From the IMG/VR virus record IMGVR_UViG_3300042154_002964: DNA of 64,000 nt. One strand, given 5' to 3'. Positions 513-58,723 of this stretch are shown here, one piece after another. The number at the start of each line of letters is the position of its first letter. Position 1 is the first letter of the stretch. The DNA is from an uncultured virus (IMG/VR IMGVR_UViG_3300042154_002964) (lineage: Duplodnaviria; Heunggongvirae; Uroviricota; Caudoviricetes). The position numbers and the translations under genes were made by a program. The notes under the pieces are model-generated. The model did no database searches, was not told the origin of the DNA, and worked only from the letters and a program-made list of their open reading frames with translations.

Positions 513-584
513 TCTTCTTTTTAATATATAAATATTGATTGAATTTTAAATATAATTATGTTATACTTAATTAAAAAAAAGAAT

Positions 585-2639
585 ATGATTGAATCAGTAG
601 ATAACGATGGTAAAGGTAAAAGTAAATCAAGCGGTGGTTCCACAACACCTGTATTAGATAATTTTAGTCGTGATTTGATTAAATTAGCAGAAGAAGGTAA
701 ATTGGACCCTGTTATTGGACGAGATAGGGAGATTACTCGTATTGCTCAAATTTTATCAAGAAGAAAGAAAAATAACCCAATTGTTATCGGTGAGCCAGGT
801 TGTGGTAAAACTGCAATAGTTGAGGGATTAGCTATTAAAATTTTTAATGGTGAATGTCCGAGAAATTTAATGGATAAACGAATTGTGTCGTTAGATATGA
901 CTTCGATTGTTGCCGGAACAAAATACCGAGGACAATTCGAAGAAAGAATGAAAGTGATTATTGAGGAATTACAAAACAACCCAAGTATCATTGTATTCAT
1001 TGATGAAATCCATACGATTGTTGGTGCGGGTAATGCGTCAGGTTCTATGGATGCGTCTAATATCTTCAAACCTGCGTTAGCAAGGGGGGAAATACAATGT
1101 GTTGGTGCGACAACCTTAGATGAATATCGTAAAAACTTCGAAAAGGATGGTGCGTTAGAAAGACGTTTCCAAAAGGTAATTGTTGATTCCGCAACTAAAG
1201 AAGAGACATTACAAATCCTTAAAAACGCAAAAGATAAATACGAAAATTATCACAAAGTAGTTTATTCTGATGAGGTATTAACTTTATGTGTTGATTTAGC
1301 TGAAAGGTATATCACAGATAGAGAATTCCCTGATAAAGCATTCGACATTATTGATGAGGTTGGTGCTCGTAGTCAAGTGGAAGTTAAAATCCCTGAAGAG
1401 ATTGAAAAACTTAAATTAGATGCTCTTAACATTAAACAAGAAAAGTTGGATGTTGTTAAACGTCAAGACTATGAAGAGGCCGCAAATTTAAGAGACAAAG
1501 AAAAACGTATCCTAAATAAATTGGAGAACGAGAAAAAGAAATTTGAGGAAGATTTAAATAAACAACGTAAAGAAATTAGTCCTGAACTTGTTTATGATGT
1601 TGTTTCCAATATGACAAAAATTCCAATTTCCAAATTAAATGCAGATGAAACTAAATCATTGAGTGAAATGGAAGGTAACTTAAATGAAAAAGTTATTGGT
1701 CAACCTGAAGCGGTGTCTAAAATTGCTAAATCAATCAGACGAAATCGTTTAGGGATTAAGGACCCGAATAAACCAATTGGTTCATTCATATTCCTTGGTT
1801 CAACAGGTGTAGGTAAAACTCACTTAGCAAAACAATTGGCTAAACAGATTTTTGGTACTGAAGATGCGTTAATTAGAATTGATATGTCAGAATATCAAGA
1901 GAAACATAATATCTCAAGATTAATCGGTTCACCTCCGGGATATGTTGGTCACGAAGAAGGGGGTCAATTAACTGAACAAGTTAAAAACAAACCTTACTCG
2001 GTGATTTTATTTGATGAGGTAGAGAAAGCGAACAAAGACATTTTCTCAACATTACTTCAAGTATTGGATGATGGACACTTAACAGATAGTTTAGGTAGAA
2101 AAATCAATTTCAAGAATTGTGTAATAATTATGACTTCAAATATTGGGGTTAGAAAATTACAAGACTTTGGAACAGGAATTGGTTTTGGGACTGTTGCTAA
2201 ATCATATGTTGAAGAAGAACAAAAACGAGATATGTTGAAGAAAGAACTTCAAAAGTTTTTCGCACCTGAGTTCTTAAATCGTATTGATGAGGTTGTTGTA
2301 TTTAAATCATTAAATCGTGAAGATGTTAAGAAAATTGTTTACTTGGAAGTTGATAGATTACAAAAACGATTAACAGGTTTAAAATATAACTTTACATTTG
2401 ATGAGTCAGTTATTGATTTAATCTCTGAAGTTGGGTACGATGAAATATATGGTGCTAGACCTTTGAAAAGAGCAATCCAAGATAAGATTGAGGATTATAT
2501 CTCAGAAGAAGTATTAAAGGGTTCTTTAGTTGAAGACGGGTTATATAACCTAATCGTAGTTGATAAAGAAATTAAGATTGAAGAAACTAAAATAGAAGAT
2601 AAACCTAAAAGAGGTAGAAAGAAAAAAGGGGCTGAATAA
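585..2639 (+). CDS. clpC: ClpC/ClpB-family AAA+ unfoldase lacking the N-terminal Clp repeat domain
   Basis: Two Walker A motifs (GEPGCGKT, GSTGVGKT), Walker B (FIDEIH, LFDEVEKA), pore loops KYRG and GYVG, UVR-like middle segment, IGF-type ClpP-docking loop; likely start at ATG 585. Confidence 0.92.
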   Translation: MIESVDNDGKGKSKSSGGSTTPVLDNFSRDLIKLAEEGKLDPVIGRDREITRIAQILSRRKKNNPIVIGEPGCGKTAIVEGLAIKIFNGECPRNLMDKRIVSLDMTSIVAGTKYRGQFEERMKVIIEELQNNPSIIVFIDEIHTIVGAGNASGSMDASNIFKPALARGEIQCVGATTLDEYRKNFEKDGALERRFQKVIVDSATKEETLQILKNAKDKYENYHKVVYSDEVLTLCVDLAERYITDREFPDKAFDIIDEVGARSQVEVKIPEEIEKLKLDALNIKQEKLDVVKRQDYEEAANLRDKEKRILNKLENEKKKFEEDLNKQRKEISPELVYDVVSNMTKIPISKLNADETKSLSEMEGNLNEKVIGQPEAVSKIAKSIRRNRLGIKDPNKPIGSFIFLGSTGVGKTHLAKQLAKQIFGTEDALIRIDMSEYQEKHNISRLIGSPPGYVGHEEGGQLTEQVKNKPYSVILFDEVEKANKDIFSTLLQVLDDGHLTDSLGRKINFKNCVIIMTSNIGVRKLQDFGTGIGFGTVAKSYVEEEQKRDMLKKELQKFFAPEFLNRIDEVVVFKSLNREDVKKIVYLEVDRLQKRLTGLKYNFTFDESVIDLISEVGYDEIYGARPLKRAIQDKIEDYISEEVLKGSLVEDGLYNLIVVDKEIKIEETKIEDKPKRGRKKKGAE

Positions 2640-9098: not shown

Positions 9099-9787
9099 TT
9101 CATTAATTGTTTAATTCTAATTATTTCCTCGGTTATCGGTTTAACACTTTCAAGGGACTCGTCATTTTCTTTAAACCCCAATAGATTTAACATTGATTTA
9201 AATATTGGATTACCCATTGACTTTTCACCTTCAGGTTCATCAGTTTTTGATTCGTCATCTTTAGTTTCACTATCTTTACTCACATCCCCTTTAGTTTCAT
9301 CATCGGGAGTATCACTCGAACCTAATGACGGGTTTGAGGATGATGTTCCACTATCGGAATTTCGTGAAACGTGAACGTGGTTATCGTGATTGGGGAACCC
9401 AAATGTTAATACCGCTTTATCATTTCCACTTTCACTATTTTTAACGTAACCCATTTTAACTAGTTCATTAACGAACTTATTAATGGCATCATAAATACCA
9501 TTACTTTTGGCTGCGGATAATGATGAAAATCCTTTACCATTAACCATAGCAATATCTACGGCATTCCCTTTAGGGTGTCTACCACTATTTCTATGTCCTG
9601 TCACCGCAGTTGTTACGGAAACTTTAACACCGGCAGCTTTGGCAGCTTTATCAACATCGGCTAATAACGATGGGTTAATCTTATCTTTTGAAGGTGTACT
9701 TGAACCAACAACCCTATCTTTAAAATCGGTATTTTGATATAACGATGAATTAACGCTAGATGGTGCTTCATATATATTCTTATCCAT
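9095..9787 (-). CDS. M15-like zinc peptidoglycan peptidase
   Basis: RHPKGNAVDI and HDNHVHVS motifs; C-terminal tail duplicated with 8412..9098. Confidence 0.65.
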   Translation of the reverse strand: MDKNIYEAPSSVNSSLYQNTDFKDRVVGSSTPSKDKINPSLLADVDKAAKAAGVKVSVTTAVTGHRNSGRHPKGNAVDIAMVNGKGFSSLSAAKSNGIYDAINKFVNELVKMGYVKNSESGNDKAVLTFGFPNHDNHVHVSRNSDSGTSSSNPSLGSSDTPDDETKGDVSKDSETKDDESKTDEPEGEKSMGNPIFKSMLNLLGFKENDESLESVKPITEEIIRIKQLMK

Positions 9788-9832: not shown

Positions 9833-10888
9833 TTATAACTTTTTGAACTCAGGTCTTATTAGTCTCCATATAGTTTCGTCGTAATCTTTTTTATCCCACA
9901 TTTGAAACATCACACCTCTAAGTCCTTCTTTTATGTTTTTCATAACAAACTCTGCGTATTCTTTCTTAGTTGGTTCAGGGTCAACATCACCATATTTCCC
10001 GTATCTAAACCCATCGTGCATTTTACCACAATATTCAGATATTGAATAGTGAGCGTATCTCAAATCTTTAACGTAAGATTTTATTTTAGAATAGAATTCA
10101 TCAGGAACTTCTTTCATCATTTCTAAAACATCATCACCATTTCTCAAACATTCCCATATACCGGTAGTAGATACGTTAGTCATTATTTTATGTAGACGTA
10201 AGTATTCCACACCTTTAACTTTCATTCTATCACCATTTGAGAATAACACTATAAACCCTTCAGCGTCGTCTCTAACCATTTGTTTTAACACAGAATAGTC
10301 AGATATACCATCGTAACGTTTAACAACTTTTAAACCGATATTTCGTATAAGATTTTGTATTCTCATATCTAAATCCCCGTGTAAGTTTACTTCATATCCG
10401 TGTTTAGTGTTTGTCGAGCCAAGTAAAACAACATCTTCAAAATCATATGAACAAACTATTCTGTTTTCAGCATATATTATTTCAAATAAGTAAGTGAAGT
10501 CTTTATGTAATTTGTTGTAATCATAATTAGATAACATTTCCATACCTTTCACCGCTTGGTCGGAAGTAAATGAACCACGAGTTGCCATAACCCATTCCCC
10601 TTCGTAGTGGAATAATATCCCCAATGAACCATCCATTTTCTCATAGACTTTGAAATCATCAGTTGGGGTGTGTTTACCTTCCTCCATATTGAAGAATTTT
10701 CTAAATGGTCTTGCAACTATATTACCGTTGTCGTCAGTTACTAAACCACGACACATCAAAGTCACCTCATCCCATAAGTTCTCAAACTGAACTTTCTCAG
10801 TGTAATTCCATATGGTTAATGGTAAAGTTGGATGTACTTGTTTGTACAATAACCCATCATTGTAATATTTTTCTAAAGTTGCTTTCAT
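9833..10888 (-). CDS. T4 Rnl1-family RNA ligase
   Basis: CRGLV...RPFRKFFN, EKMDGSLG (motif I), FEII, EGF, RMKVK. Confidence 0.9.
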   Translation of the reverse strand: MKATLEKYYNDGLLYKQVHPTLPLTIWNYTEKVQFENLWDEVTLMCRGLVTDDNGNIVARPFRKFFNMEEGKHTPTDDFKVYEKMDGSLGILFHYEGEWVMATRGSFTSDQAVKGMEMLSNYDYNKLHKDFTYLFEIIYAENRIVCSYDFEDVVLLGSTNTKHGYEVNLHGDLDMRIQNLIRNIGLKVVKRYDGISDYSVLKQMVRDDAEGFIVLFSNGDRMKVKGVEYLRLHKIMTNVSTTGIWECLRNGDDVLEMMKEVPDEFYSKIKSYVKDLRYAHYSISEYCGKMHDGFRYGKYGDVDPEPTKKEYAEFVMKNIKEGLRGVMFQMWDKKDYDETIWRLIRPEFKKL

Positions 10889-15807: not shown

Positions 15808-16018
15808 CCACCCCTGAGATTACGGGGTGTAGATGTCCTCAGTTTTTCTTATACAAAACCCAACGCGTCTTACCGCTTAAAAATCAACCATTACGTCGGA
15901 GTGAGGATGGTGTTCCACACTATTAGCCCAACGACCCCCTTTACAAATCCTAATGAGGTATCAGATATATCATTGTTTAAGTAACGATACCAAATCTAGT
16001 GAGTTTCTCGAACTCATT
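15808..16018 (-). ncRNA. candidate structured ncRNA sharing a 3' motif with the GOLLD-like RNA
   Basis: ORF-free; ACTGAGG...CCCCG-TAATCTCA-GGGG end. Confidence 0.4.
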
Positions 16019-16019
16019 G

Positions 16020-16094
16020 TGGAGACAGTGGGAATCGAACCCACCACACGGTGATTGCAAATCATCATCGCCACGCCTTGGAACATTTGCCCCC
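16020..16094 (-). tRNA. tRNA-Ala(UGC)
   Basis: Acceptor GGGGGCA/TGTCTCC with G3:U70; A73; loop TTTGCAA. Confidence 0.8.
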
Positions 16095-16100
16095 AAATTT

Positions 16101-16200
16101 AGACAACAGGTAATACTCACATTTATTATTACCTAACTCAACGACCTCTGCAGTTGTGAATCTGTTTTAAAGGTTTTCCTCGGTGAAGAGTTTGTTGTCT
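16101..16200 (-). ncRNA. candidate multi-stem small RNA
   Basis: Closed by AGACAAC/GTTGTCT; internal AGGTAATA/TATTACCT and AACTC/GAGTT helices. Confidence 0.4.
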
Positions 16201-16206
16201 ATTTTT

Positions 16207-16365
16207 TTATTTGAAAGACTTTGATTGGTCCTCCCTATTTAATTCTTTCTCAATGTAGATATTGACCATATGTATTAGTGTGTCAGAATCAATATCAATT
16301 GTTTGACTTTCCTTACTTTCTTTCAGAAACGGAAAGATATTTTTAAAATACTCCTCGAATTTCAT
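16207..16365 (-). CDS. small hypothetical protein (52 aa)
   Basis: Manual translation MKFEEYFKNIFPFLKE...SFK*. Confidence 0.55.
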   Translation of the reverse strand: MKFEEYFKNIFPFLKESKESQTIDIDSDTLIHMVNIYIEKELNREDQSKSFK

Positions 16366-16369
16366 TTTA

Positions 16370-16702
16370 TTATAACTTTATAAATGTTTCATTTTTGATT
16401 GATTTACTAATCCATCTTGCTAATTCAGAACCTCTTATTTCCGAATTGAAAGAAGTTGTCCCAAGGTCTTCAGATAATGTTGTGACCACATCTGACTCCT
16501 TAACTTTCGCACCAACTTCTAATGTTGATACATTATGTGTGACCTTTACATCAACTGTTGAAATTGGAAACTCGTACATATCACCAAAAACCTCAATCTT
16601 GTAATACAAATTACCTGCAATATAGTGACTAAATTTAGCCATTGCTTTAGACTTCATTAAGTCTTTTTTAATTTCAGTTTCGTTTAACTCAATTGTAACC
16701 AT
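16370..16702 (-). CDS. hypothetical protein
   Basis: ORF within tRNA region. Confidence 0.7.
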   Translation of the reverse strand: MVTIELNETEIKKDLMKSKAMAKFSHYIAGNLYYKIEVFGDMYEFPISTVDVKVTHNVSTLEVGAKVKESDVVTTLSEDLGTTSFNSEIRGSELARWISKSIKNETFIKL

Positions 16703-17009
16703 TTTCCAATTTCCATTTATTATGTAATTCATTTATTGTGTGATAAGGACTACCTACACCTTCATAAATCTCATCAAAACCATTTTCTTTAGTAATAACA
16801 GATTCTTCAGCTTTAATTGCCCCCCTATATTTATCCCCGTAACTTCCTTGAACTGTTTTTGTTGCCGGGTCAATATCACCCCAAGATGCTCTCCAACTTC
16901 TTGGTTCAATATATTCTACGAAATATTGTTTACCTGTTTCAGGAAATACAACAATTTCTTTTCCTGTTTCGTCTCGATTTACTAAGAAATCTCTTTTTAC
17001 ATCTTCCAT
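16689..17009 (-). CDS. hypothetical protein
   Basis: 106 aa; WGDIDPATK...YGDKYRGAI. Confidence 0.75.
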   Translation of the reverse strand: MEDVKRDFLVNRDETGKEIVVFPETGKQYFVEYIEPRSWRASWGDIDPATKTVQGSYGDKYRGAIKAEESVITKENGFDEIYEGVGSPYHTINELHNKWKLENGYN

Positions 17010-17038
17010 AACTGACTGTTATACTGTTTATTTTATTG

Positions 17039-17111
17039 AGCGGGTGGGGGGAATCGAACCCTCGTCCTTAGATTGGAAGTCTAATATAATAAGCCACTAT
17101 ACGACACCCGC
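17039..17111 (-). tRNA. tRNA-Gly(UCC)
   Basis: TTAGA-CTTCCAA-TCTAA; GCGGGTG acceptor; U73. Confidence 0.92.
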
Positions 17112-17197
17112 AATTTGGGTAGAATCAGACGCGTTCTGTCTACCGAGACCTCGACGTTGTACTATGTTTCAAGTCAGAGCGTACCGAGACACTATTG

Positions 17198-17277
17198 TGA
17201 ACCTGGAGGGAGTCGAACCCTCAATCCTAAAAATCGCGGCTTAAACACGACGCGTATACCAATTTCGCCACAGGTCC
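17198..17277 (-). tRNA. tRNA-Leu(UAA)
   Basis: TCGTG-TTTAAGC-CGCGA; Leu-type D arm. Confidence 0.85.
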
Positions 17278-17283
17278 TTTTTG

Positions 17284-17356
17284 TACCCCTACAGGGATTC
17301 TAACCCCGATTAAACCCTTAGAAGGGGTTGGTCCTATACAGTTGAACGATAGGGGC
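17284..17356 (-). tRNA. tRNA-Arg(UCU), non-canonical T- and D-loops
   Basis: AACCC-CTTCTAA-GGGTT; T-loop TTAGAAT; D-loop lacks GG. Confidence 0.7.
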
Positions 17357-17365
17357 GAATTATTG

Positions 17366-17437
17366 CGGACTATGTAGGATTCGAACCTACGACCTATCCG
17401 TTAACAGCGGAGTGCTCTACCACTGAGCTAATAGTCC
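17366..17437 (-). tRNA. tRNA-Asn(GUU)
   Basis: Loop CTGTTAA; canonical D and T arms. Confidence 0.92.
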
Positions 17438-17449
17438 ATTTAATTGTTG

Positions 17450-17522
17450 AGGTCCCTAACGGATTCGAACCGTTATCCCTGGGTTACAAAGCCAGAATAA
17501 TAAGCCATTATACTAAGAGACC
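17450..17522 (-). tRNA. tRNA-Thr(UGU)
   Basis: CTGGC-TTTGTAA-CCCAG. Confidence 0.85.
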
Positions 17523-17664
17523 AATTAAGAGTGTTATTAATTCGTTTTACCTAAGACCGCGAATCCACGTAAAACTCAACTTCACCAATATTTTTACTGC
17601 AGTTCCAATATTGTCACATTGCTACTATATTGAACTAATAACTACGAATTACCCATCATAATTT

Positions 17665-17740
17665 CACCATCGTTAGGGCTCGAACCTAAAGCTTCCGACT
17701 CCACGTCAGATGTGTTGACCAATTTACACCACTAGTTACT
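17665..17740 (-). pseudogene. tRNA-like element (Pro UGG-like, G33, broken acceptor stem)
   Basis: D arm, TCTGA-CGTGGAG-TCGGA and TTAGGTTCGAGCCCTAA present; acceptor strands do not pair. Confidence 0.55.
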
Positions 17741-17769
17741 TAGATTGACAAATAATTGTTTTTCTCTTT

Positions 17770-17845
17770 GCTGAATAATAAGGGTTCGAACCTTAATCTG
17801 AAATCCGTATTACCATCATCCGTGCTCCATTACACTATATCCAAT
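17770..17845 (-). pseudogene. tRNA-like element with unpaired anticodon stem
   Basis: TAGTGTAATGGAGCAC D arm and TAAGGTTCGAACCCTTA T arm. Confidence 0.5.
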
Positions 17846-17893
17846 CGACAGTTTCGAACCTGTCATATAAAGGGTTATAACTCCTTTATTTTG

Positions 17894-17965
17894 CGGTCTA
17901 TGCGAGAATCGAACTCGCGGCACATCCGTGACAGGGATGTATGTTAGCCACTACACCAATAGACC
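17894..17965 (-). tRNA. tRNA-Asp(GUC)
   Basis: CATCC-CTGTCAC-GGATG; G73. Confidence 0.92.
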
Positions 17966-17971
17966 ATAATA

Positions 17972-18154
17972 AAAACAAGTTTTTCGTGACCTTTACACAT
18001 CATAACCAATTTTACTCGGTGATTACATTTTCGTCATTGGGGTAGCTAATCCCCGACTTATAGTAATTCTACCCTCAATACTTTACTATCGCGAATCAAG
18101 TACCATCTTGGGATTTATAGACAGTGAGGGTTTACTCACCGTCTTCACTTGTTT
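17972..18154 (-). ncRNA. candidate structured RNA (~180 nt)
   Basis: Closed by AAACAAGT/ACTTGTTT; internal AGACGGTGAG/CTCACTGTCT and GGGG/CCCC hairpins. Confidence 0.4.
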
Positions 18155-18156
18155 AG

Positions 18157-18228
18157 TAGCGGGTACAGGATTCGAACCTGTGTCTTTGGGTTATGAGCCC
18201 AACGGGGTGACCACTCCCCCAACCCGCG
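18157..18228 (-). tRNA. initiator tRNA-fMet(CAU)
   Basis: GGG-CTCATAA-CCC anticodon stem; C1:U72 mismatch. Confidence 0.9.
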
Positions 18229-18233
18229 ATATG

Positions 18234-18310
18234 AATTACCCATAGGACTCGAACCTACAACCCTTCGCCCTTTTGAGCGATGTGCAAACCAATTTACACC
18301 ATAAGTAATT
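18234..18310 (-). pseudogene. tRNA-like element with non-canonical anticodon loop
   Basis: D and T arms intact; TCGCT-CAAAAG-GGCGA 6-nt loop without U33. Confidence 0.55.
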
Positions 18311-18405
18311 AATCAAGAACAATAAACAGAAATTAGTGTCGACAAATTTCCTTAGGCAATATGTTTATTTTCTTGTTAGGGTTCGGTTAATTACTCCGAC
18401 CTTTG

Positions 18406-18479
18406 TATCGCGTACGGGATTCGAACCCGTGATTTTCACCTTGAAAGGGTGACGACTTAAACCTCTCGTCTAACGCGAC
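18406..18479 (-). tRNA. tRNA-Glu(UUC)
   Basis: TCACC-CTTTCAA-GGTGA. Confidence 0.9.
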
Positions 18480-18491
18480 ATTTTGTTTTTT

Positions 18492-18570
18492 CTATTCCGA
18501 TATGTCAAAGACCTTTTGTTTTCTTTTGTCTTACAAATCTAATCATTTTCTTTTGTTCTCACAAGCTCTT
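18492..18570 (-). promoter_or_regulatory. promoter (TAGATTTG) plus boxA-like cassette
   Basis: TAGATTTGTAAGACAAAA...GTCTTTGACATATCGG; near-duplicate of 18832-18905. Confidence 0.65.
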
Positions 18571-18589
18571 TGTGATATTTTTTTTTCTG

Positions 18590-18663
18590 TAGTTCAGAAG
18601 GGATTTGAACCCCCAACCTTGACGATATAAGCGTCCTGCTCTCACCTGTTGAGCTACTGAACC
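18590..18663 (-). tRNA. tRNA-Ile(UAU)
   Basis: GGACG-CTTATAT-CGTCA; A73. Confidence 0.85.
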
Positions 18664-18667
18664 AAAT

Positions 18668-18747
18668 ACGTTTCACGTTTTAGGCCAATTAAACTAACCG
18701 CCCGTCGTCACGGACAGTACCGGAGTCGAACCGATATGTGATAACGA
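18668..18747 (-). ncRNA. circularly permuted tRNA mimic (YrlA/Y-RNA-like topology)
   Basis: 5'->3' order: T arm ATCGGTTCGACTCCGGT, acceptor-like stem closed by a GACG loop, D arm GTTTAATTGGCCTAAAAC; termini pair (CGTTATCAC/GTGAAACG). Confidence 0.65.
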
Positions 18748-18749
18748 AG

Positions 18750-18823
18750 TACCCTTGGTGGGATTCGAACCCACAAAAAAATAGTTTCTAAAACTATCGT
18801 GTATACCTTTCCACCACAAGGGT
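18750..18823 (-). tRNA. tRNA-Leu(UAG), short variable region
   Basis: ATAGT-TTTAGAA-ACTAT. Confidence 0.8.
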
Positions 18824-18831
18824 ATCTACTT

Positions 18832-18905
18832 CTATTCCAATATGTCAATGAACTCTTGTTCTGTTTTGTCTTACAAATCTAATACTTTTATTTTGATTTG
18901 CCAAA
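18832..18905 (-). promoter_or_regulatory. promoter (TAGATTTG) plus boxA-like cassette
   Basis: TTTG...TAGATTTGTAAGACAAAA...GTTCATTGACATATTGG. Confidence 0.65.
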
Positions 18906-18915
18906 CTTAGGTCAC

Positions 18916-18947
18916 AAAAAAAACCCCTCTCTTTTGGAGAAGGGTTT
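18916..18947 (-). terminator. putative attenuator terminator 1
   Basis: AAACCCTTCTC-CAAAA-GAGAGGGGTTT followed by a U tract. Confidence 0.8.
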
Positions 18948-18970
18948 CATTTAAATTTTATCTTAATGAA

Positions 18971-19048
18971 TTAACACATCTTCTCCGATACACAAGGATT
19001 GTCTCCCTCCGTTCTCGCATTTAAAAGTATGTTATTCAAATTTTGCAT
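18971..19048 (-). CDS. putative leader peptide 1 (25 aa) of the tRNA sub-array 16020-18823
   Basis: MQNLNNILLNARTEGDNPCVSEKMC*; contains GGAGAAG complementary to the terminator 5' arm. Confidence 0.75.
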   Translation of the reverse strand: MQNLNNILLNARTEGDNPCVSEKMC

Positions 19049-19133
19049 TGTGTTGTCTTTTTTATTAAATATATTGTACTTTTTGAAAAGTTCAATAGTT
19101 AGTGAAAAATTTTTAACAAATTGGTTTAGATTT

Positions 19134-19532
19134 TTAATTTTCAAGTACTTCTTTAACAATTTTTGAAACTAAAGTATTGTCGGCTTTACCCTTATATACT
19201 TTATTGAAAGCACCCATCATTTTACCAACATTATCAATACCATCTTTTTTAAATGTTCTGATGATTGAACGGATACTAAATTCATCCATTAACTTTGGTA
19301 AATATGGTTTAATGTATTCTAATTCTTTTAAAGATTCATCAGTGTTTGTCTGTGTTAATGATTTTTCCATTTTCTTTAAAATAGAAAGAACTACCTCATC
19401 TGTCACACTAACACCTCTACCTTCTTCATTTTGGATTTCACCTTTTAGTACACCTAAAAAGTTTTTCTTTTCCATTTCTTTGTTTTTAAATGCCGTCATA
19501 AATTCGACATTAATTTGTTCTCTTAGTGACAT
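19134..19532 (-). CDS. GatB/YqeY-domain protein
   Basis: MSLREQI...AFKNK...LKGEIQNEE...YLPK...GKMMG...KGKAD...VSKIVK. Confidence 0.85.
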   Translation of the reverse strand: MSLREQINVEFMTAFKNKEMEKKNFLGVLKGEIQNEEGRGVSVTDEVVLSILKKMEKSLTQTNTDESLKELEYIKPYLPKLMDEFSIRSIIRTFKKDGIDNVGKMMGAFNKVYKGKADNTLVSKIVKEVLEN

Positions 19533-19549
19533 AGTTATTTGTTTTTAAG

Positions 19550-19630
19550 TGGGTGCGGAGGGATTCGAACCCCCACGCGATTAAGACCTGAGCTACAATC
19601 AGGCGAGCCAGCCAATTGCTCAACACACCC
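19550..19630 (-). tRNA. tRNA-Tyr(GUA), atypical
   Basis: CCTGA-TTGTAGC-TCAGG; long variable region. Confidence 0.75.
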
Positions 19631-19705
19631 ATAAAGAAAATATCGTAGATTGTCCTTCACAATTTAACGGCGGGTTTGAACTTAATCAACTCTCCTACGA
19701 TATCT

Positions 19706-19791
<86 letters not shown>

Positions 19792-19817
19792 ATTATATGA
19801 CAATTAATGTCATTTCG

Positions 19818-19889
19818 CGCACCACCAAGGACTCGAACCCTGACCAAATGGGTTGGAACCATTTATGCTAGCCATTACACCAATGATGC
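19818..19889 (-). tRNA. tRNA-Trp(CCA)
   Basis: AATGG-TTCCAAC-CCATT; G73. Confidence 0.85.
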
Positions 19890-19916
19890 GAATAATGAAA
19901 TTTTTATATTTCATTG

Positions 19917-19990
19917 AGGACAGAGAGAGGTTCGAACTCCCGAATAATGGGTTTGCAGCCCACCCCTTTAGACCACTCAGGCATCTGTCC
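19917..19990 (-). tRNA. tRNA-Cys(GCA)
   Basis: GTGGG-CTGCAAA-CCCAT; U73. Confidence 0.92.
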
Positions 19991-20186
19991 AATTTAATAT
20001 TAAGTCGCGAGTAATCCATCTGTCGCTTATTACTAGAATCTTGTGGCTTACTTACTATAGTTCATACCGTTACCACTAGGAAACCCAACTTAATATCTTC
20101 GTACTAATTATTTTAGAGATTGGTTCCCGAAGGATTAAACCATCACTTGTACTTCGTGTCAGGAGGTAAACCCCATATCTCTAATG

Positions 20187-20258
20187 TAGCCCCTGTAGGA
20201 CTCGAACCTACACTATCTTGTATGTAAAACAAGTACTTCACCTTTAAGCTAAAGGGCT
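20187..20258 (-). tRNA. tRNA-Val(UAC)
   Basis: CTTGT-TTTACAT-ACAAG. Confidence 0.9.
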
Positions 20259-20266
20259 AATTATTG

Positions 20267-20341
20267 TGACCCCGGTGAGAATCGAACTCACGACCCGTAC
20301 ATTAAAAGTGTACTGCTCTAAACCAACTGAGCTACGAAGTC
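20267..20341 (-). tRNA. tRNA-Lys(UUU)
   Basis: GTACA-CTTTTAA-TGTAC. Confidence 0.92.
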
Positions 20342-20464
20342 AAATTTGGAAGGTCACCACAAACACCTTCCACGGTGAGTATTTTAATGTCGTTTTGTCT
20401 AATTACACCTAAGTGTCATAGTCGCAGGTCTCACTTCACGACAAACCCGATTGGTATTAAGTAG

Positions 20465-20538
20465 TCGGTACGGTAGGATTTGAACCTACGACCTTTCACG
20501 TATCAGGCGAATGCTCTTACCAGCTGAGCTACGTACCG
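20465..20538 (-). tRNA. tRNA-Ile(GAU)
   Basis: TTCGC-CTGATAC-GTGAA. Confidence 0.9.
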
Positions 20539-20545
20539 TTATTTT

Positions 20546-20620
20546 TGGTCGGGGTAGCAGGTGTCGAACCTGCCGCCTCTTGGTCCCAAACCAAGCGTCT
20601 CACCCCAAGACTATACCCCG
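20546..20620 (-). tRNA. tRNA-Pro(UGG) with encoded CCA
   Basis: CTTGG-TTTGGGA-CCAAG; CGGGGTA acceptor. Confidence 0.9.
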
Positions 20621-20686
20621 TTTGTTTGTTTAACAAAGATAAGTAATCATTTTCATTCTCACAATACCTTAGTTAATTTTTTTTTG

Positions 20687-20758
20687 TATCGTTATCAGGA
20701 CTCGAACCTGAACCCACACCTTATGAGAGTGTTGTGACTACCTTTACACTATAACGAC
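20687..20758 (-). tRNA. tRNA-Met(CAU) elongator (or Ile2)
   Basis: ACACT-CTCATAA-GGTGT. Confidence 0.8.
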
Positions 20759-20763
20759 GTTTG

Positions 20764-20851
20764 CGGAAGATGTAGGGTTCGAACCTACGCGTCATATTTC
20801 AGACCTACTTGTTTAGCAAACAAGCCTCTTTACCAATTTGAGTAATCTTCC
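20764..20851 (-). tRNA. tRNA-Ser(GCU)
   Basis: CTTGT-TTGCTAA-ACAAG; long variable arm; G73. Confidence 0.9.
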
Positions 20852-20891
20852 AAAATACACCGACCTAGCTCGGTATCACACATCGGATACG

Positions 20892-20963
20892 TAGTCCCCC
20901 AAGGACTCGAACCTTGACATTATCGTCCGTAGCGATAGGTGCTATCCGTTACACCAAGGAACC
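20892..20963 (-). tRNA. tRNA-Arg(ACG)
   Basis: TATCG-CTACGGA-CGATA. Confidence 0.9.
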
Positions 20964-20966
20964 AAA

Positions 20967-21077
20967 TAATAAGGTTGGAGACTTATAATCGACCATTATA
21001 AGGTTGGAGCCTTATAATCACCCATTATTAGGTCTGAACCTAATATTCACCCATTATTAGGTTATAACCTTATATTG
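20967..21077. repeat. four degenerate 29-nt tandem hairpin repeats
   Basis: Units start at 20967, 20996, 21025 and 21054; consensus TTATwAGG-6 nt-CCTwATAwTCACCCA. Confidence 0.8.
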
Positions 21078-21254
21078 AGTTTTTCTGTAGTGTTTCCAAG
21101 TTTTATACATTCTAACTTGATAACTCATTTTGTTTCCGTAGAAACTTATTCCTTCATCCCAATAAATTGGGTAAAAGTCATTAATCAATCTATTTCGGTA
21201 TTCTCTACCATTTTGTGCTTTGTTCAGTTTTGCTCTGTTGATGTTTGTACTCAT
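21057..21254 (-). CDS. small basic hypothetical protein
   Basis: MSTNINRAKLNKA...KTWKHYRKTQYK. Confidence 0.65.
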   Translation of the reverse strand: MSTNINRAKLNKAQNGREYRNRLINDFYPIYWDEGISFYGNKMSYQVRMYKTWKHYRKTQYKVIT

Positions 21255-21510
21255 AGTTGTGGTTTTTAACCTACAACTTGTCAAATTTTTTCTTCATTTT
21301 GTTTAATGTAATCTAATGCAATGTGTATCAAACCGTTGAGATATTGCCATTTCGGACTTGCGTTCGGATAATGACCGAATATCTCAACTAATTTTTCTTC
21401 TTGCCATTTCCTTTCACTAATGATTGGAGATAACCATCGACCATTTTCTAAGTCGGCATTTACAAATGTTTTTTCTGTCTCTGCGATTTCTAAGTTTTAA
21501 AAATTAATTG

Positions 21511-21585
21511 GGAGTATAGTGAGATTCGAACTCACCCTATTAGCACCACAAACTAACGTGCTCGACCACTGACACTATATACTCC
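21511..21585 (-). tRNA. tRNA-His(GUG)
   Basis: TTAGT-TTGTGGT-GCTAA; G-1:C73 pair. Confidence 0.9.
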
Positions 21586-21663
21586 ATAAAAACCCCACTT
21601 CATCGGATTAATGGACCGACTGCCATATCGGGAGTGGGGGTTTTCCCATCAGTAGGGACTCCG

Positions 21664-21736
21664 TGGGACAGGAGGGAATCGAACCCCCATTGCTTGTTCT
21701 TCAGACAAGTGCCTTGACCAACTTGGCAACTGACCC
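21664..21736 (-). tRNA. tRNA-Phe(GAA)
   Basis: CTTGT-CTGAAGA-ACAAG. Confidence 0.88.
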
Positions 21737-21842
21737 AAATATTTTCATCAAATCACCGATTACCACAATTACGGTGAGACCTTCGGGAACTGCCGTCCCG
21801 TGTTTTCTTTTTACCCGTGGATTAAACTATTTGATGGGGTAG

Positions 21843-21917
21843 TTGTCCCGGCAGGAATCGAACCTGCGATATCCACATTCAAAGTGTGGTGGCTCTGCCA
21901 ACGTCGCCTACAGGACA
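21843..21917 (-). tRNA. tRNA-Gln(UUG)
   Basis: CCACA-CTTTGAA-TGTGG; U1:A72. Confidence 0.85.
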
Positions 21918-21924
21918 ATAATGG

Positions 21925-22050
21925 TTACTTACGTAACCTTTTGATTAATTTTCTCAACAACCTAAATTTTATTTTAACCTCTTTAGGTTGTTGTCTTAAC
22001 ATTACTCTACTTGACTCAAATGTTCCCGTCAATACTTCTCTTTTTTTCAT
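21925..22050 (-). CDS. small basic hypothetical protein (41 aa)
   Basis: Manual translation MKKREVLTGTFESSRVMLRQQPKEVKIKFRLLRKLIKRLRK*. Confidence 0.5.
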   Translation of the reverse strand: MKKREVLTGTFESSRVMLRQQPKEVKIKFRLLRKLIKRLRK

Positions 22051-22065
22051 TTTACTTTTATTTTG

Positions 22066-22148
22066 CGGAAGACGAGGGAATCGAACCCCCAAAGCTTTTA
22101 CACCCAGCCGCTTTCAAGGCGGTGTCCTCGTCCATTCGGGCGCCTTCC
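22066..22148 (-). tRNA. tRNA-Ser(UGA)
   Basis: ACCGC-CTTGAAA-GCGGC; long variable arm; G73. Confidence 0.85.
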
Positions 22149-22163
22149 GTATTATTATCTAAA

Positions 22164-22225
22164 CCAATATGTCAATGAACTTTTCTGTTGTCAAAGATAC
22201 AAATTTCATTTTGTAACTTCCAAAT
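22164..22225 (-). promoter_or_regulatory. promoter (TATCTTTG) plus boxA-like cassette
   Basis: TTTG...TATCTTTGACAACAG...GTTCATTGACATATTGG. Confidence 0.65.
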
Positions 22226-22233
22226 TTTATTTC

Positions 22234-22267
22234 AAAAAAAAACCCCCGAACTTTTGGTTCAGGGGTC
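22234..22267 (-). terminator. putative attenuator terminator 2
   Basis: GACCCCTGAAC-CAAAA-GTTCGGGGGTT followed by a U tract. Confidence 0.8.
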
Positions 22268-22292
22268 TTACTAAATTAATATACGTTTATAT

Positions 22293-22412
22293 TTAACTTA
22301 ATATGTTTTCTGAACCATATGACGTGCTAAACCACATCGGATACGATACGCTACACACGCGAATCTGTTTCGATGGACTTACTTGTTTAATATGTTGTTC
22401 AGTTGTTCTCAT
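22293..22412 (-). CDS. putative leader peptide 2 (39 aa) of the tRNA sub-array 19550-22148
   Basis: Manual translation MRTTEQHIKQVSPSKQIRVCSVSYPMWFSTSYGSENILS*; contains GGTTCAG complementary to the terminator 5' arm. Confidence 0.75.
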   Translation of the reverse strand: MRTTEQHIKQVSPSKQIRVCSVSYPMWFSTSYGSENILS

Positions 22413-22477
22413 TTTTATTATTCTTTTAATATATATCAACAAATTTAGTAAAAGTTCTTTGGTTGTCAAGTTTTTTT

Positions 22478-23050
22478 TTAATTTTTTCTACATTTTTCAC
22501 AAAATGTGATTGTGTTCACATCATTACTTCTGTTTTCAGACATAACACAATTTGAGTTATCACAATGACTCAAACCTAAATTGTGTCCTATCTCGTGAAT
22601 TATGACACGTTTTAATTCATTTGGTCGGTTCTTACCAACAATTATGATATTACCATAAAGTTCACCTAATCCACCAATCGTATTTTTATCTTCTACTGAA
22701 TAACACCCATCATCAGTTAATAAAATTTTATTTTGGTTATTGTCAAAATCCTCTAAAGATTTCTCACAATCAATTAACCCATTGATGTAATAATCAGAAC
22801 TCAATTGAATTGGGTCAATTATTTTAGTTGGAACACCATAAGTCTCTTCAACAATTTGTTTAGCGTGACGTAAAGTACTATTTGAATAATTACCAAGACC
22901 TTGAATATAGATTGTATCACCATCTGTCATTTTTTTCAAATCAATTGAATTTGTGATAAATGTTGGTAATGGGATTTTACCTGATTTAACTTTAGAAGTT
23001 AAAGTAACCATAACCAAAACTATAACACCAAATTTTATTATCTCTTTCAT
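22478..23050 (-). CDS. archaemetzincin (M54)-like zinc metalloprotease, membrane-anchored or secreted
   Basis: HEIGHNLGLSHC...CVM...FCEKC; N-terminal hydrophobic segment. Confidence 0.8.
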   Translation of the reverse strand: MKEIIKFGVIVLVMVTLTSKVKSGKIPLPTFITNSIDLKKMTDGDTIYIQGLGNYSNSTLRHAKQIVEETYGVPTKIIDPIQLSSDYYINGLIDCEKSLEDFDNNQNKILLTDDGCYSVEDKNTIGGLGELYGNIIIVGKNRPNELKRVIIHEIGHNLGLSHCDNSNCVMSENRSNDVNTITFCEKCRKN

Positions 23051-40854: not shown

Positions 40855-42993
40855 TCACCTCAATTTTATTTTCATTTTTGTACCTGTTTCATTTTTTTCA
40901 CAAGTAATGGTAAAACCGTGTTCGTGTAAAATTGCGATACAAATATTCAACCCCAAACCTGTTCCTGATTCTTTTTGACCTTCTTTTCTATGATATGGTT
41001 GTGATAGGTATTCGAATTCTGATTGAGTCATACCACGACCATTGTCCTGTAATGCTAAGTGGTTTTCGTCTTCCATATAGACCGCAACCACCTTATTATC
41101 CGAATCGTTATATTTTAAACCATTACGAATTAAATTATCAATTGCCGTACAAAATAGAGGTTCATTAACATCCAATGTTGGTAACCAATCAATTGCAACT
41201 TGACTTGAATATGCGGTGGATGTTAAGTATGAGTTTAAGATGTCTCTTAGATTTAAATTTTCTTTTGTTAATACAACATCTTGTTTAACTAAATTTGTAA
41301 ATTCATAAACTCCCTTATAAACTTTCTGTGTATGTTTTAAACCTTCCTTCAACATTTTAAGTGGGGCTTCCAATTTTAATGTTTCAATATCTTCAGGTTT
41401 TAATCTTCGTTCTAACGAACTAATTCCTCTTGGGATGTATGTGTTTATCCCTGAGTGCATATCGTGTCTTAGAATCTTCGCAGCGTGTTCTAAATATGTG
41501 TTTTTCTTTTCTATCTCTCTCTTTTGTTCATAAGAAGTTGTAATGTCTGTTGAAATTTTCATAACACGATAAACCTTACCATCAACACTAAGAATTGGGT
41601 TGTAAGTTGCTTGTAAATAAACTAAAGAACCATCTTTTTTAATTCTAATAATTTCACCTGAAAATGATAAACCATCTTTTAATTTTTCCCAAAAAATACG
41701 ATACTCGTCACTTTTTGAATATTCTTCATCCACAAAAATTCTATGATGATTTCCAATTACTTCAGCATTAGATGAATATCCCATAGTTTCTAAGAACAAA
41801 TTATTGGCAAAAACGATATTACCTTCTAAATCAAATTCAATAACCGCATTAGATTTATTAATAGCATTCATTCTATTATGAATTTCTACTTCCTTTTTTT
41901 TAAGTTCAGTAACGTCTTGTCTAATTGACGTATAACCTTTTACTTTACCGCTATCACTATCAAAATCGGCTTTAATATAGGTGTCAACCCAATATAATTC
42001 ACCTTCTTTATTTTTATTGATAACTAAGTCATTCCAAATCCCACCTTTTTTAACGGTCTTATACATATTAGCCCAAAATTTCTTATCGTGAATTCCCGAA
42101 TTAACAATATTATGGTCTTTACCTAAACACTCATCAAGACTCCAACCTGAAACATCTTCAAATTTTTTATTAACGTAAACAATTTTACCTCTTTTATCTG
42201 TTTTACTGACCAAGACTGATGAGTCCACAAAATGTTCAAACTCACCTAATTCATTTTTAAGTTCATTACCTTCTTGAACTGAATAAGCAAATGAAAATAA
42301 TGACGATAACATTTCGGCAAAATTTACTTCCACTTTATGCCATTCCCTAACCGTATAACTTTCAATACATATTACACCAATTACTTCACCTTTATAAACG
42401 ATTGGAACGTCAAGCATTGCTCTAACACCTAATGGGTCTGAATAAGTTTCTTTAAAACATTGTGTTGATGGATGTAAATTAACATCATTTGCAATTATAA
42501 TCGGATTTGTTTTAAGTCCATTGAAGTATGGTTTATAATCTTTTTCAAAAATCTCAATCCCGTTAACCCATTCACCTGTTTTTTTCTCATATAATTGTTC
42601 ACACACAATACTTGTTTTTTTCTGGTTATATAACCAAATTGAACATCTATCGGCACATACGCTATTTGTAACTTCTTTAGTTAATAATTTAGCACCTTCA
42701 TTAACATTTCCCTCATAAAATAAATGATTGTGTGTTTGTGATATTAAAGTTTCATTTAAATTTCTTGCGTAATAATTCAATTTAATTGATTCTTTATTTT
42801 TTTTCACATAATCATAAATTATTTTGAAAAATAGGGGGATAAATAAAACAAAACAGATAAATTCAACCCACATTACTGAATTACATAGGGGTAGAATATT
42901 AAACACCACTAAAAGTTTTATTATCAAAAACATTGTCATCACAACGACTGAGGTATAAAAAGAATATCGTGTGTTTTTTTCTAGTGATATCAT
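40855..42993 (-). CDS. membrane GAF-PAS-PAS sensor histidine kinase
   Basis: Two N-terminal TM helices; GAF (ADRCSIW...LDVPI); two PAS domains; H-box LRHDMH, N-box NLIRNGLKY, DNGRG, GTGLGL. Confidence 0.92.
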   Translation of the reverse strand: MISLEKNTRYSFYTSVVVMTMFLIIKLLVVFNILPLCNSVMWVEFICFVLFIPLFFKIIYDYVKKNKESIKLNYYARNLNETLISQTHNHLFYEGNVNEGAKLLTKEVTNSVCADRCSIWLYNQKKTSIVCEQLYEKKTGEWVNGIEIFEKDYKPYFNGLKTNPIIIANDVNLHPSTQCFKETYSDPLGVRAMLDVPIVYKGEVIGVICIESYTVREWHKVEVNFAEMLSSLFSFAYSVQEGNELKNELGEFEHFVDSSVLVSKTDKRGKIVYVNKKFEDVSGWSLDECLGKDHNIVNSGIHDKKFWANMYKTVKKGGIWNDLVINKNKEGELYWVDTYIKADFDSDSGKVKGYTSIRQDVTELKKKEVEIHNRMNAINKSNAVIEFDLEGNIVFANNLFLETMGYSSNAEVIGNHHRIFVDEEYSKSDEYRIFWEKLKDGLSFSGEIIRIKKDGSLVYLQATYNPILSVDGKVYRVMKISTDITTSYEQKREIEKKNTYLEHAAKILRHDMHSGINTYIPRGISSLERRLKPEDIETLKLEAPLKMLKEGLKHTQKVYKGVYEFTNLVKQDVVLTKENLNLRDILNSYLTSTAYSSQVAIDWLPTLDVNEPLFCTAIDNLIRNGLKYNDSDNKVVAVYMEDENHLALQDNGRGMTQSEFEYLSQPYHRKEGQKESGTGLGLNICIAILHEHGFTITCEKNETGTKMKIKLR

Positions 42994-58391: not shown

Positions 58392-58723
58392 TAATCCATA
58401 TTATAAATTGTTTGTAACTGAGGTTTTCTTTCACAATTTACCAATAATAAGATATTCTCAAGTTTTTCATTAAAGTCGTGAACATCAAAACTTTTTCTCA
58501 TTACAAAATTAATAATGATTAAACCATTATCAACATTAAACTCAATATTGTATTCTGATATATTTCTACGGTAGTTCTTATTTACAAATGAGTTAACCAT
58601 ATTGTGAAATAAATGGATGTCATATTGTTCAAAACAAGGACGACTACGATGAATATGAATAGGGACTCTACCTATCATAGTATCAAGTCTCCTATCGTTA
58701 TGTGTTATATTCAGTGTTCCCAT
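58367..58723 (-). CDS. hypothetical protein
   Basis: ORF convergent with DHFR. Confidence 0.55.
   Translation of the reverse strand: MGTLNITHNDRRLDTMIGRVPIHIHRSRPCFEQYDIHLFHNMVNSFVNKNYRRNISEYNIEFNVDNGLIIINFVMRKSFDVHDFNEKLENILLLVNCERKPQLQTIYNMDYQFWDSNR

Follow-up and report, generated by a model that had tools for sequence, protein, structure and literature searches.

Arrays of tRNA genes are common in phages, and the reason for carrying them is debated, the candidates being codon usage, decay of the host tRNAs and escape from tRNA-cleaving defences. The question raised by the locus described here is whether a phage can adjust the transcription of such an array to the demand for the tRNAs that it encodes. 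The locus lies in a 64,000-nucleotide (nt) stretch of DNA, in the following called the window, from the uncultured virus IMGVR_UViG_3300042154_002964 (IMG/VR; Caudoviricetes). Between a YqeY-like gene and a block of tRNA genes, all of them on the minus strand, there is a short open reading frame (ORF), here called Leader 1, which is followed by an intrinsic terminator. We consider it likely, with a probability of roughly 0.72, that Leader 1 is a ribosome-mediated transcription attenuator of the trp/his type that would sense decoding by the phage's own set of tRNAs, and that it is one of two in the window. All the evidence is computational and comes from sequence, folding and the comparison of viral contigs; the reading is built on the ORF, the terminator, the alternative pairings, the match between codons and tRNAs and its position, the conservation, and the identity of a boxA motif downstream. 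The parts of Leader 1 are, in the order of transcription:

19066 to 19095, minus strand: promoter-like block before Leader 1, TTGAAC, 19 nt, then TATATTTA (listed by the program at 19095-19068)

18971 to 19048, minus strand: Leader 1 ORF, 25 codons plus stop, peptide MQNLNNILLNARTEGDNPCVSEKMC, with the ATG at 19048-19046 and the TAA at 18973-18971

18998 to 19042, minus strand: putative sensing run, codons 3-17, N L N N I L L N A R T E G D N

19024 to 19038, minus strand: region 1, the 5' strand of the 1:2 hairpin in minimum free energy folds, within the ORF at codons 4-9

18980 to 18986, minus strand: core of region 2, GGAGAAG, codons 22-23, with region 1 or the terminator 5' arm as its partner (the latter pairing being the antiterminator)

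18913 to 18948, minus strand: intrinsic terminator, regions 3 and 4, with a 12-bp stem at 18948-18920 (five G-C pairs), a 5-nt loop and a U-tract of eight down to 18916

The initial annotation of 18916-19048 had described the ORF and its codons 3-17 (AAT TTG AAT AAC ATA CTT TTA AAT GCG AGA ACG GAG GGA GAC AAT), and both the coordinates and the sequence proved to be correct. The ORF has no Shine-Dalgarno sequence and carries an A at position -3, and its stop codon lies 22 nt ahead of the terminator hairpin. Bacteroidetes are described, in PMC6847099, as working without Shine-Dalgarno sequences, as favouring an A at -3, and as having the promoter consensus TTTG/TANNTTTG. The lack of a Shine-Dalgarno sequence, the A at -3 and the promoter-like elements of this type in the window would fit a phage with a Bacteroidota-type host. 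The promoter-like block before Leader 1 is conserved in homologues (aligned in five), and TATATTTA, its candidate -7 box, is without the near-invariant final G.

The tRNA genes of the window are arranged in two blocks:

16019 to 18823, minus strand: tRNA sub-array 1, with Leu-UAG, Ile-UAU, Glu-UUC, Met-CAU, Asp-GUC, Thr-UGU, Asn-GUU, Arg-UCU, Leu-UAA, Gly-UCC, two ORFs and a weak-scoring Ala-UGC

19549 to 22148, minus strand: tRNA sub-array 2, with Ser-UGA (weak score), Gln, Phe, His, Arg-ACG, Ser-GCU, Met, Pro, Ile-GAU, Lys, Val, Cys, Trp, Tyr and Tyr

At default settings ARAGORN finds 24 tRNA genes on the minus strand, and a relaxed threshold adds two, tRNA-Ser(UGA) at 22065-22148 and tRNA-Ala(UGC) at 16019-16094. 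Sub-array 2 is followed by the YqeY-like gene (19532-19134), next by Leader 1, and beyond this by sub-array 1 with its 11 tRNA genes. The annotation had listed the same 11 specificities downstream of the leader; ten of them are found at default settings and Ala-UGC at the relaxed threshold only, and the CAU tRNA, which it had listed as fMet, is a putative initiator. Three further weak tRNA-like stretches are seen on the same strand in the larger gaps of sub-array 1, at 17665-17736, 17771-17843 and 18235-18308. They score 23-25 bits with Rfam, which is below the threshold, are called Pro-UGG, Arg-ACG and Leu-CAA by ARAGORN at the relaxed setting, and may be decayed or atypical tRNA genes.

It had been claimed in the annotation that 15 consecutive codons of Leader 1 are all read by the tRNAs of the block that it precedes. 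This holds (15 of 15) if U34 is allowed to read every codon of a four-codon family; with strict wobble the number of cognate codons is 14 of the 15 and the longest stretch is nine, CTT not being read by Leu-UAG. The 46 long ORFs of the window (13,053 codons) were used as the reference for codon usage. By this reference the share of codons read by the 11 tRNAs of sub-array 1 is 42% with strict wobble and rises to 52% when U34 is given whole four-codon boxes, and the probability of the run in an ORF of the length of Leader 1 is 4e-3 with strict and 2.8e-4 with relaxed decoding. Among the 374 ATG-ORFs of at least 20 codons in the six frames (27,077 codons) the run of Leader 1 is the longest, 15 codons, the next being 14. 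Two other ORFs with long codon runs, at 9460-9540 on the minus strand and at 58613-58729 on the plus strand, were rejected as leaders because neither stands in the context of a boxA or of tRNAs, and the first of them also sits in apparent coding sequence. The run contains G-ending codons that are rare in the long ORFs of the window, where ACG makes up 6% of the Thr codons, GAG 24% of the Glu codons and GCG 24% of the Ala codons.

A twin unit stands ahead of sub-array 2:

22440 to 22469, minus strand: Leader 2 promoter-like element, TTGACA then TAAATTTG, which fits TAHHTTTG, the consensus in PMC6847099 (listed at 22469-22442, 10/12)

22293 to 22412, minus strand: Leader 2 ORF, 39 codons, MRTTEQHIKQVSPSKQIRVCSVSYPMWFSTSYGSENILS

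22317 to 22310, minus strand: Leader 2 region 2, UGGUUCAG

22230 to 22269, minus strand: Leader 2 terminator, 13-bp stem, U-tract at 22242-22234, -19.2 kcal/mol

22164 to 22224, minus strand: promoter-like element and boxA ahead of sub-array 2, TTTG, 21 nt, TATCTTTG (22224-22192), then boxA at 22180-22164

The match is more extensive in this unit. Codons 6-29 of Leader 2 (22397-22326) form an unbroken run of 24 codons that the tRNAs of sub-array 2 read under strict wobble (P = 1.4e-8 per ORF), and a manual tally showed that all 14 tRNA species of the sub-array are represented in the run. CGC, which accounts for 0% of the Arg codons in the long ORFs of the window, is nevertheless used in Leader 2. 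Leader 1 has a z of +3.4 for its own sub-array and -2.9 for the other, and Leader 2 +4.3 for its own and -2.8 for the other; the code is divided between the two leaders in the same way as it is divided between the two tRNA blocks. The stop codon of Leader 2 is found 23 nt before the hairpin.

Both terminators are followed by a boxA motif, and a search of viral contigs for this motif gave at least 117 stretches. A unit was defined as a strong hairpin with a U-tract at most 110 nt upstream of boxA, which resulted in 45 non-redundant units; all unit counts given here are among the matches listed, with the window added. An ATG-ORF with its stop 8-37 nt before the hairpin is present in 43 of the 45. 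These ORFs have 20-51 codons, except for one of 90 codons (L098), which is probably an ordinary gene and was left out of the later tests. Where at least 200 nt of upstream sequence was available, 34 of the 36 units have an ORF of 20 codons or more whose end lies 5-40 nt ahead of the hairpin, as compared to 9.9% of shuffled sequences (P = 4e-32).

In 26 of the 28 units that have at least six downstream tRNAs, cognate codons are as frequent as expected or more so, and the signal emerges when the 3' structural part of the ORF is set apart. The ORFs were split four codons before the start of region 2, and since region 2 was defined by complementarity to the terminator 5' arm alone, the split is independent of the tRNA sets. 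Of the 715 codons in the sensing part 438 are cognate, where 321.6 would be expected (z = 9.1), and of the 249 in the remaining 3' part 115, where the expectation is 105.2 (z = 1.3); with L098 excluded, the z of the sensing part is above zero in all 13 families. A permutation that makes no use of structure, for which 15 family representatives were taken and the start codon and the last nine codons were dropped, gave a mean z of 2.42 for the leaders' own tRNA sets and 0.31 for those of other families, a result reached by 0 of 100,000 permutations (P at most 1e-5), and the own set ranks first for 9 of the 15 leaders. Striking single cases are L093, in which a run of 16 codons is drawn solely from the six amino acids of its 12 downstream tRNAs, and L037. 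The annotation had also remarked that G-ending codons stand out, and this turned out to be a general trait of the leaders, NNG making up 38% of the NNR codons in the sensing parts and 19% in long ORFs (P = 1e-19). Its proposal of a leader-peptide attenuator whose sensing codons match the downstream sub-array thus gains support from the permutation, from the position of the match and from conservation.

The leader peptides fall into about 14 unrelated families, which bears on the idea that Leader 1 is an independent small gene whose peptide or terminated RNA acts in trans, for instance in translation or tRNA metabolism, the terminator doing no more than ending this gene. Leader 1 has its own promoter-like block, ORF and terminator as such a gene would, an RNA-library contig matches a terminated Leader 2 RNA (see below), and trans functions of leader peptides and attenuator RNAs are reported from Sinorhizobium. 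The peptides are, however, wholly different from family to family, and what the families share is the position, the length, the tRNA-matched composition and the RNA pairing; furthermore, the residues conserved at the C-terminus fall on region 2 of the RNA. A gene acting in trans is a very improbable explanation of the locus, and a trans role would in any case be compatible with a switch in cis.

The attenuator proposed here is also reflected in the homologues of Leader 1, called family C. Searching with a 21-nt pattern taken from the beginning of the family gave 34 stretches, and after removal of nine duplicates and one chance match 24 distinct sequences were left. All 24 have a 23-24-codon ORF of the form MKNL(H/N)II..., with the terminator and a tRNA block kept, the tRNAs of which are drawn from Leu-UAA, Met, Ile-UAU, Gly, Ala, Glu, Asp and Arg-UCU, sometimes with Thr or Leu-UAG. 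The annotation had let its proposal depend on an open frame in orthologous regions, and the frame is kept in every one of the 24. An alignment was made of 25 sequences, namely the window, 23 of the 24 homologues and L035. Within the columns of the ORF its gaps measure 3 or 9 nt, and homologues use different codons for the same residue. Within the family, AGA in the sensing part goes together with a downstream tRNA-Arg(UCU) (counts 5/1/1/15, Fisher P = 0.0013, with kinship ignored), and the Thr, Leu-UAG and Asn tRNAs are never present without a cognate codon in the leader. Synteny through the YqeY-like gene was tried as another route to orthologues and rejected, as only the 100%-identical L004 has the leader downstream among the 26 viral loci with this gene. 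No cultured-phage homologue was found: a "distant" blastn search with window 18700-19560 came back empty, and a family C unit matched tRNA-Leu genes only.

Both leaders in the window fold into a hairpin inside the ORF followed by the terminator, with a z of about -4 to -5 against shuffles, and without the 3' arm of the terminator the segment at the end of the ORF pairs with the terminator 5' arm. The annotation had noted that the antiterminator at 18980-18986 can pair with 18936-18942, and this agrees with the folding: GGAGAAG is complementary to CUUCUCC, and the resulting hairpin has -12.2 as compared to -16.8 kcal/mol for the terminator. The three helices of Leader 1 are mutually exclusive, with energies of -21.8 (1:2), -12.2 (2:3) and -16.8 kcal/mol (3:4), and the corresponding values for Leader 2 are -23.1, -18.3 and -19.2 kcal/mol. 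In the family C alignment the antiterminator, in the homologues GGAGAUGG paired with CCAUCUCC, has 92% of its cells paired, against at most 62.5% in slid controls. Two of its pairs are changed on both sides, an A-U pair of the window being U-A in 22 relatives, and the covariation score was reached by 1 of 500 shuffles. The terminator has 97% and the 1:2 helix 85% of the cells paired. Among 41 unique units, the complementarity of region 2 to the terminator arm has a z below -2 in 18, and region 2 is located within the last eight codons or so in most of them. A scan of 16000-23000 against Rfam gave no match to a known leader, riboswitch or T-box (the T-box at E up to 1). Sub-threshold matches to an enterobacterial 5'UTR family at both leaders were rejected as terminator-like chance matches.

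To represent a stalled ribosome, 30 nt were masked, from -15 to +14 around the A site, a size that was chosen once beforehand and left untuned; of the codons of Leader 1, the even-numbered ones were tested. The antiterminator of Leader 1 forms with the A site at codons 2-16, not at 18, and the cognate run ends at codon 17. In Leader 2 it forms at codons 2-28, not at 30-32, and the run ends at codon 29. At positions beyond these limits only weak long-range pairings appear, which would need to enclose the ribosome. In the folding model, the limits of antiterminator formation thus coincide with the ends of the cognate runs in both leaders. An automated criterion for a formed antiterminator, applied across the families, separated 66% from 48% cognate codons (P = 3.5e-6), the criterion being a noisy one that also counted alternative pairings behind the ribosome.

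After the terminator of Leader 1, the following elements lie before or within sub-array 1:

18874 to 18905, minus strand: second promoter-like element, TTTG, 20 nt, TAGATTTG, between terminator and boxA (listed at 18904-18876)

18837 to 18853, minus strand: boxA-like motif, GTTCATTGACATATTGG, 17 nt, after the Leader 1 terminator

18497 to 18555, minus strand: third promoter-like/boxA module, between tRNA-Ile(UAU) and tRNA-Glu, with the promoter-like part at 18534-18555 and with no leader or terminator before it

The motif GTTCATTGACATATTGG occurs after both leader terminators and as a variant within sub-array 1, in all three copies on the tRNA strand. The nearest record, a near-identical viral contig of 186.8 kb (G001) that has 92% of the sampled words in common with the window, has these three copies only, all of them in the tRNA region. 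A T-variant of the motif is found in more than 122 genome loci, nearly all from Bacteroidota according to the record titles, and in 19 of 20 Bacteroidota loci an Rfam scan placed it in the 16S-23S spacer, downstream of the tRNAs there and a short distance ahead of 23S. The rRNA operons of E. coli have a second boxA upstream of 23S, and boxA is necessary and sufficient for the Nus-factor antitermination complex, according to PMC10250234. Since the motif has the same place in the 16S-23S spacer as this second boxA, we read it, from sequence and position, as the rRNA-operon boxA of the host phylum, which the phage would have taken over. The motif is presumably also similar to the E. coli boxA in sequence.

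In other viral contigs (L030, L039, L044 and similar ones) the motif comes after a conserved, GC-rich structured segment with no tRNA adjoining, and phages may use boxA in other contexts too. In L016, a relative, the first tRNA after boxA looks truncated (620-1265); before the array resumes there is an ORF with many Cys/His motifs, which may be a homing-endonuclease-like insertion.

The translation of the ORF, the direction of the switch and the recruitment of Nus factors that we infer would work together in the following way. A polymerase coming from the promoter-like block at 19095-19066, or from the upstream tRNA/YqeY unit, would transcribe the 25-codon ORF. If codons 3-17 are decoded smoothly, the ribosome would arrive at the last eight codons and the stop and cover GGAGAAG, the terminator could fold, and transcription would end. 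If one of the aminoacyl-tRNAs is scarce, the ribosome would stall somewhere in codons 3 to about 16 and leave region 2 free, which could then pair with the terminator 5' arm as soon as this has emerged and let the polymerase read through. The polymerase would next transcribe boxA, probably recruiting the antitermination machinery of host Nus factors, and then sub-array 1. Since the sensing codons are those read by exactly that sub-array, this would amount to negative feedback on how much of each tRNA species is available, from host and phage alike.

It is also conceivable that the switch has the opposite polarity. In a coupling-type (pyrBI-like) or inverse switch, efficient decoding would bring a ribosome close behind the polymerase to the stop codon, where it hinders the folding of the terminator and causes read-through, and a stall would lead to termination. 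The feedback would then be positive and would commit the phage to making tRNAs as soon as its own tRNAs function. The match between codons and tRNAs suits either polarity, and the distance from stop codon to hairpin is 22-23 nt in the window and 8-37 nt in relatives. In E. coli, according to PMC4824070, a terminator a few bp from the stop codon is repressed, the effect is sequence-dependent at 17-18 bp, and termination is maximal only beyond about 30 bp; going by this, a terminating ribosome 22-23 nt away may still affect the hairpin. A switch of the pyrBI type would, however, have an ORF that runs into the hairpin or ends within a few nt of it, and the distances here are 22 and 23 nt, and mostly 17-37 nt in relatives. 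Such a switch also needs no antiterminator, yet the pairing is above shuffles in 18 of the 41 units and is kept in the homologues. Moreover, the cognate run ends where a stalled ribosome would start to mask region 2, and the enrichment of rare, slow codons suits a sensor that is on by default and shut off by feedback. Finally, the relatives in which no promoter precedes the tRNAs would give a positive feedback nothing to start from. The opposite polarity is for us an unlikely one, and negative feedback is the preferred direction.

Several observations weigh against an attenuator that counts tRNAs, or limit how far the numbers carry. By our estimate about 0.7 runs of 15 codons would be expected by chance over the 27,077 codons of the window, and the strict-wobble run of Leader 1 is only nine. 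The tRNA-Ala of sub-array 1, which has a G3.U70 pair, is weak-scoring and distant, about 0.9 kb past tRNA-Gly with two ORFs between them. In the survey, the enrichment over the whole ORF is modest and is absent in the leaders of family B; the downstream tRNA sets were cut at 3 kb, and units within a family are not independent of each other. Regarding the structure, the antiterminator complementarity of Leader 1 taken alone has a z of -1.4 and an alternative partner, GGAGGGA, exists, and the 1:2 helix is not above shuffles in duplex energy (median z +0.44 in 41 units). A polymerase coming from sub-array 2 will have transcribed a boxA before it reaches the terminator of Leader 1 and might not respond to it. 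Finally, the window and 13 of the 24 family C relatives have a promoter-like element after the terminator and ahead of the first tRNA, and where such a second promoter is present the tRNAs may, judging from the sequence, be expressed regardless of the attenuator. On the question of chance, which the annotation had put to the run, the answer is therefore twofold: alone the run is modestly unlikely in an ORF of its length, and it is suggestive without being decisive, and across the loci the match of codons to tRNAs is beyond chance, a context that makes the case convincing.

The second promoter-like element leads to another explanation, namely that the terminator is a plain one, which ends the YqeY/leader transcript and insulates a constitutive unit of promoter, boxA and tRNAs, the ORF having no regulatory role. 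The element TTTG-N20-TAGATTTG has the right place for this, between terminator and boxA, similar elements occur in many relatives, and the run of Leader 1 alone could occur by chance somewhere in the window. The module is also repeated inside the array without a leader, the copy at 18497-18555 sharing 86% identity over 66 nt with that after Leader 1. In the promoters of F. johnsoniae, according to PMC6847099, the first N is seldom a G. On inspection of the sequences, the element stands before boxA in 11 of the 24 family C relatives. In the other 13 the U-tract abuts boxA, as it also does in L010, L016, L033, L079 and L138, and there is thus no room for a promoter before boxA. Two of these 13 (L278 and L284) have a promoter-like element downstream of boxA; in the remaining 11 none was seen before the first tRNA, and the tRNAs can there be reached only through the terminator. 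A plain insulating terminator leaves these relatives unexplained, and so it does the ORF in 34 of 36 units against about 10% of shuffles, the match to the own tRNA set, the restriction of this match to the sensing part, and the frame kept in 24 homologues. We find it quite improbable. From the sequences, the leader-attenuator appears as the constant part and the second promoter as an optional part; its contribution, as we infer it, would be a basal expression independent of the attenuator, to which the attenuator may add a demand-driven component in this phage.

Some hints on transcripts come from RNA-library contigs. Contigs of three studies bridge the terminator of Leader 1 (X3, 18731-19070; X4, 18830-19048; X2, 18864-19100), and one contig of low depth spans 22408-22234, which is from codon 2 of Leader 2 to the last U of the tract. 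The end of this contig at the U-tract is a weak hint of a terminated RNA. The contigs are from four runs with shares of 0.05-0.17 and low depth, belong to relatives 90-99% alike, and carry neither strand nor true ends; DNA carry-over is possible in them, and the reading is confined to the covered stretches. In sub-array 2, an RNA-library contig from a related strain joins 21045 to 21287 and skips a 75-codon ORF (21057-21284), which appears to be an insertion/deletion polymorphism.

The composition of the leaders may also suggest a wider role, which we put forward as a tentative and rather doubtful idea. It is conceivable that each leader takes a census of the codons served by its block, in which every tRNA species is sampled, the weakest wobble-read codons are preferred and any stall opens the gate. 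The phage would then detect the selective loss of particular host tRNAs in the infection and replace just the set concerned, with the help of the rRNA antitermination machinery of the host (through boxA) and of an Rnl1-like ligase. The loss of tRNAs could in that case be due to host shut-off, to a mismatch in codon usage or to an anticodon-nuclease defence. Leaders that mirror their downstream tRNA genes would show that the arrays are regulated by demand, block by block, and would reveal which tRNAs become limiting during infection. They would also mean that phages borrow the host rRNA boxA for the transcription of tRNAs, and the design could serve as a compact natural biosensor of decoding capacity.

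The ligase in question is encoded by an ORF at 9833-10888 (minus strand) with a T4 Rnl1-type RNA ligase domain (PF09511, E = 3.6e-15). In T4, ligases of the Rnl1 type mend tRNA cut by anticodon nuclease, and by analogy the ORF would fit a phage that is invested in tRNA supply. The gene between the two sub-arrays (19134-19532, minus strand) is YqeY-like, similar to the C-terminal part of GatB (Pfam PF09424, E = 7.7e-17), and relatives of it are found in 26 viral contigs, in several of them within or beside tRNA arrays. A small metzincin-like peptidase gene (22478-23050, minus strand) is located directly upstream of Leader 2. The window, which is AT-rich (32% G+C) and phage-like, also encodes a ClpB-like protein with a double AAA+ domain (558-2639, plus strand) and a GAF-PAS histidine-kinase-like protein (40855-42993, minus strand).

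Attenuators with leader peptides are known from the amino-acid operons trp, his, leu, thr, ilv and pheA of enterobacteria. The units described here are like them in having a short ORF with diagnostic codons, a terminator, an antiterminator predicted to depend on a stall, masking at the end of the ORF, and similar helix energies. They differ in that tRNA genes would be regulated, not biosynthetic enzymes or synthetases, and in that up to 14 tRNA species would be counted by rare, wobble-read codons, not one or two codon types. Furthermore, they belong to a phage of a phylum without Shine-Dalgarno sequences, in which attenuation is to our knowledge little studied, they have a boxA after the terminator, and their 1:2 helix is without statistical support. 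Multivalent attenuation is seen in the leaders of ilvGMEDA, with Ile, Leu and Val codons, and of thr, with Thr and Ile codons. There, as would be the case here, a single leader integrates the supply of several aminoacyl-tRNAs, but the number is two or three amino acids in those leaders and 9-14 tRNA species in the present ones, and here the set of codons varies with the genes downstream.

The charging of tRNA controls synthetase genes through the pheM-pheST attenuator and through T-box riboswitches, the latter binding uncharged tRNA without a ribosome. The likeness is that the supply of tRNA or aminoacyl-tRNA is sensed by conditional termination in order to regulate the translation apparatus; the difference is that synthetases are regulated in those systems, and that the leaders of the window match no T-box or Rfam leader family. 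With boxA and the Nus antitermination of rRNA operons the common feature is a motif ahead of long, untranslated structural RNA genes. In the present case, in contrast, the motif is phage-borne, is placed before tRNA arrays and downstream of a putatively regulated terminator, and its binding of NusB/S10 is putative. A full-text literature search turned up no report of tRNA genes controlled by leader-peptide attenuation, nor of leaders of this kind in phages, and a term search of a paper on premature terminators gave no mention of tRNA genes or phages. The class of mechanism is thus a known one, and what is new, as far as we found, is the tRNA-gene target, the census leader, the coupling to boxA and the phage setting. 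If the proposed role is correct, attenuation would extend into a phylum without Shine-Dalgarno sequences, from metabolic enzymes to the decoding apparatus itself, and from one to three amino acids to as many as 14 tRNA species.

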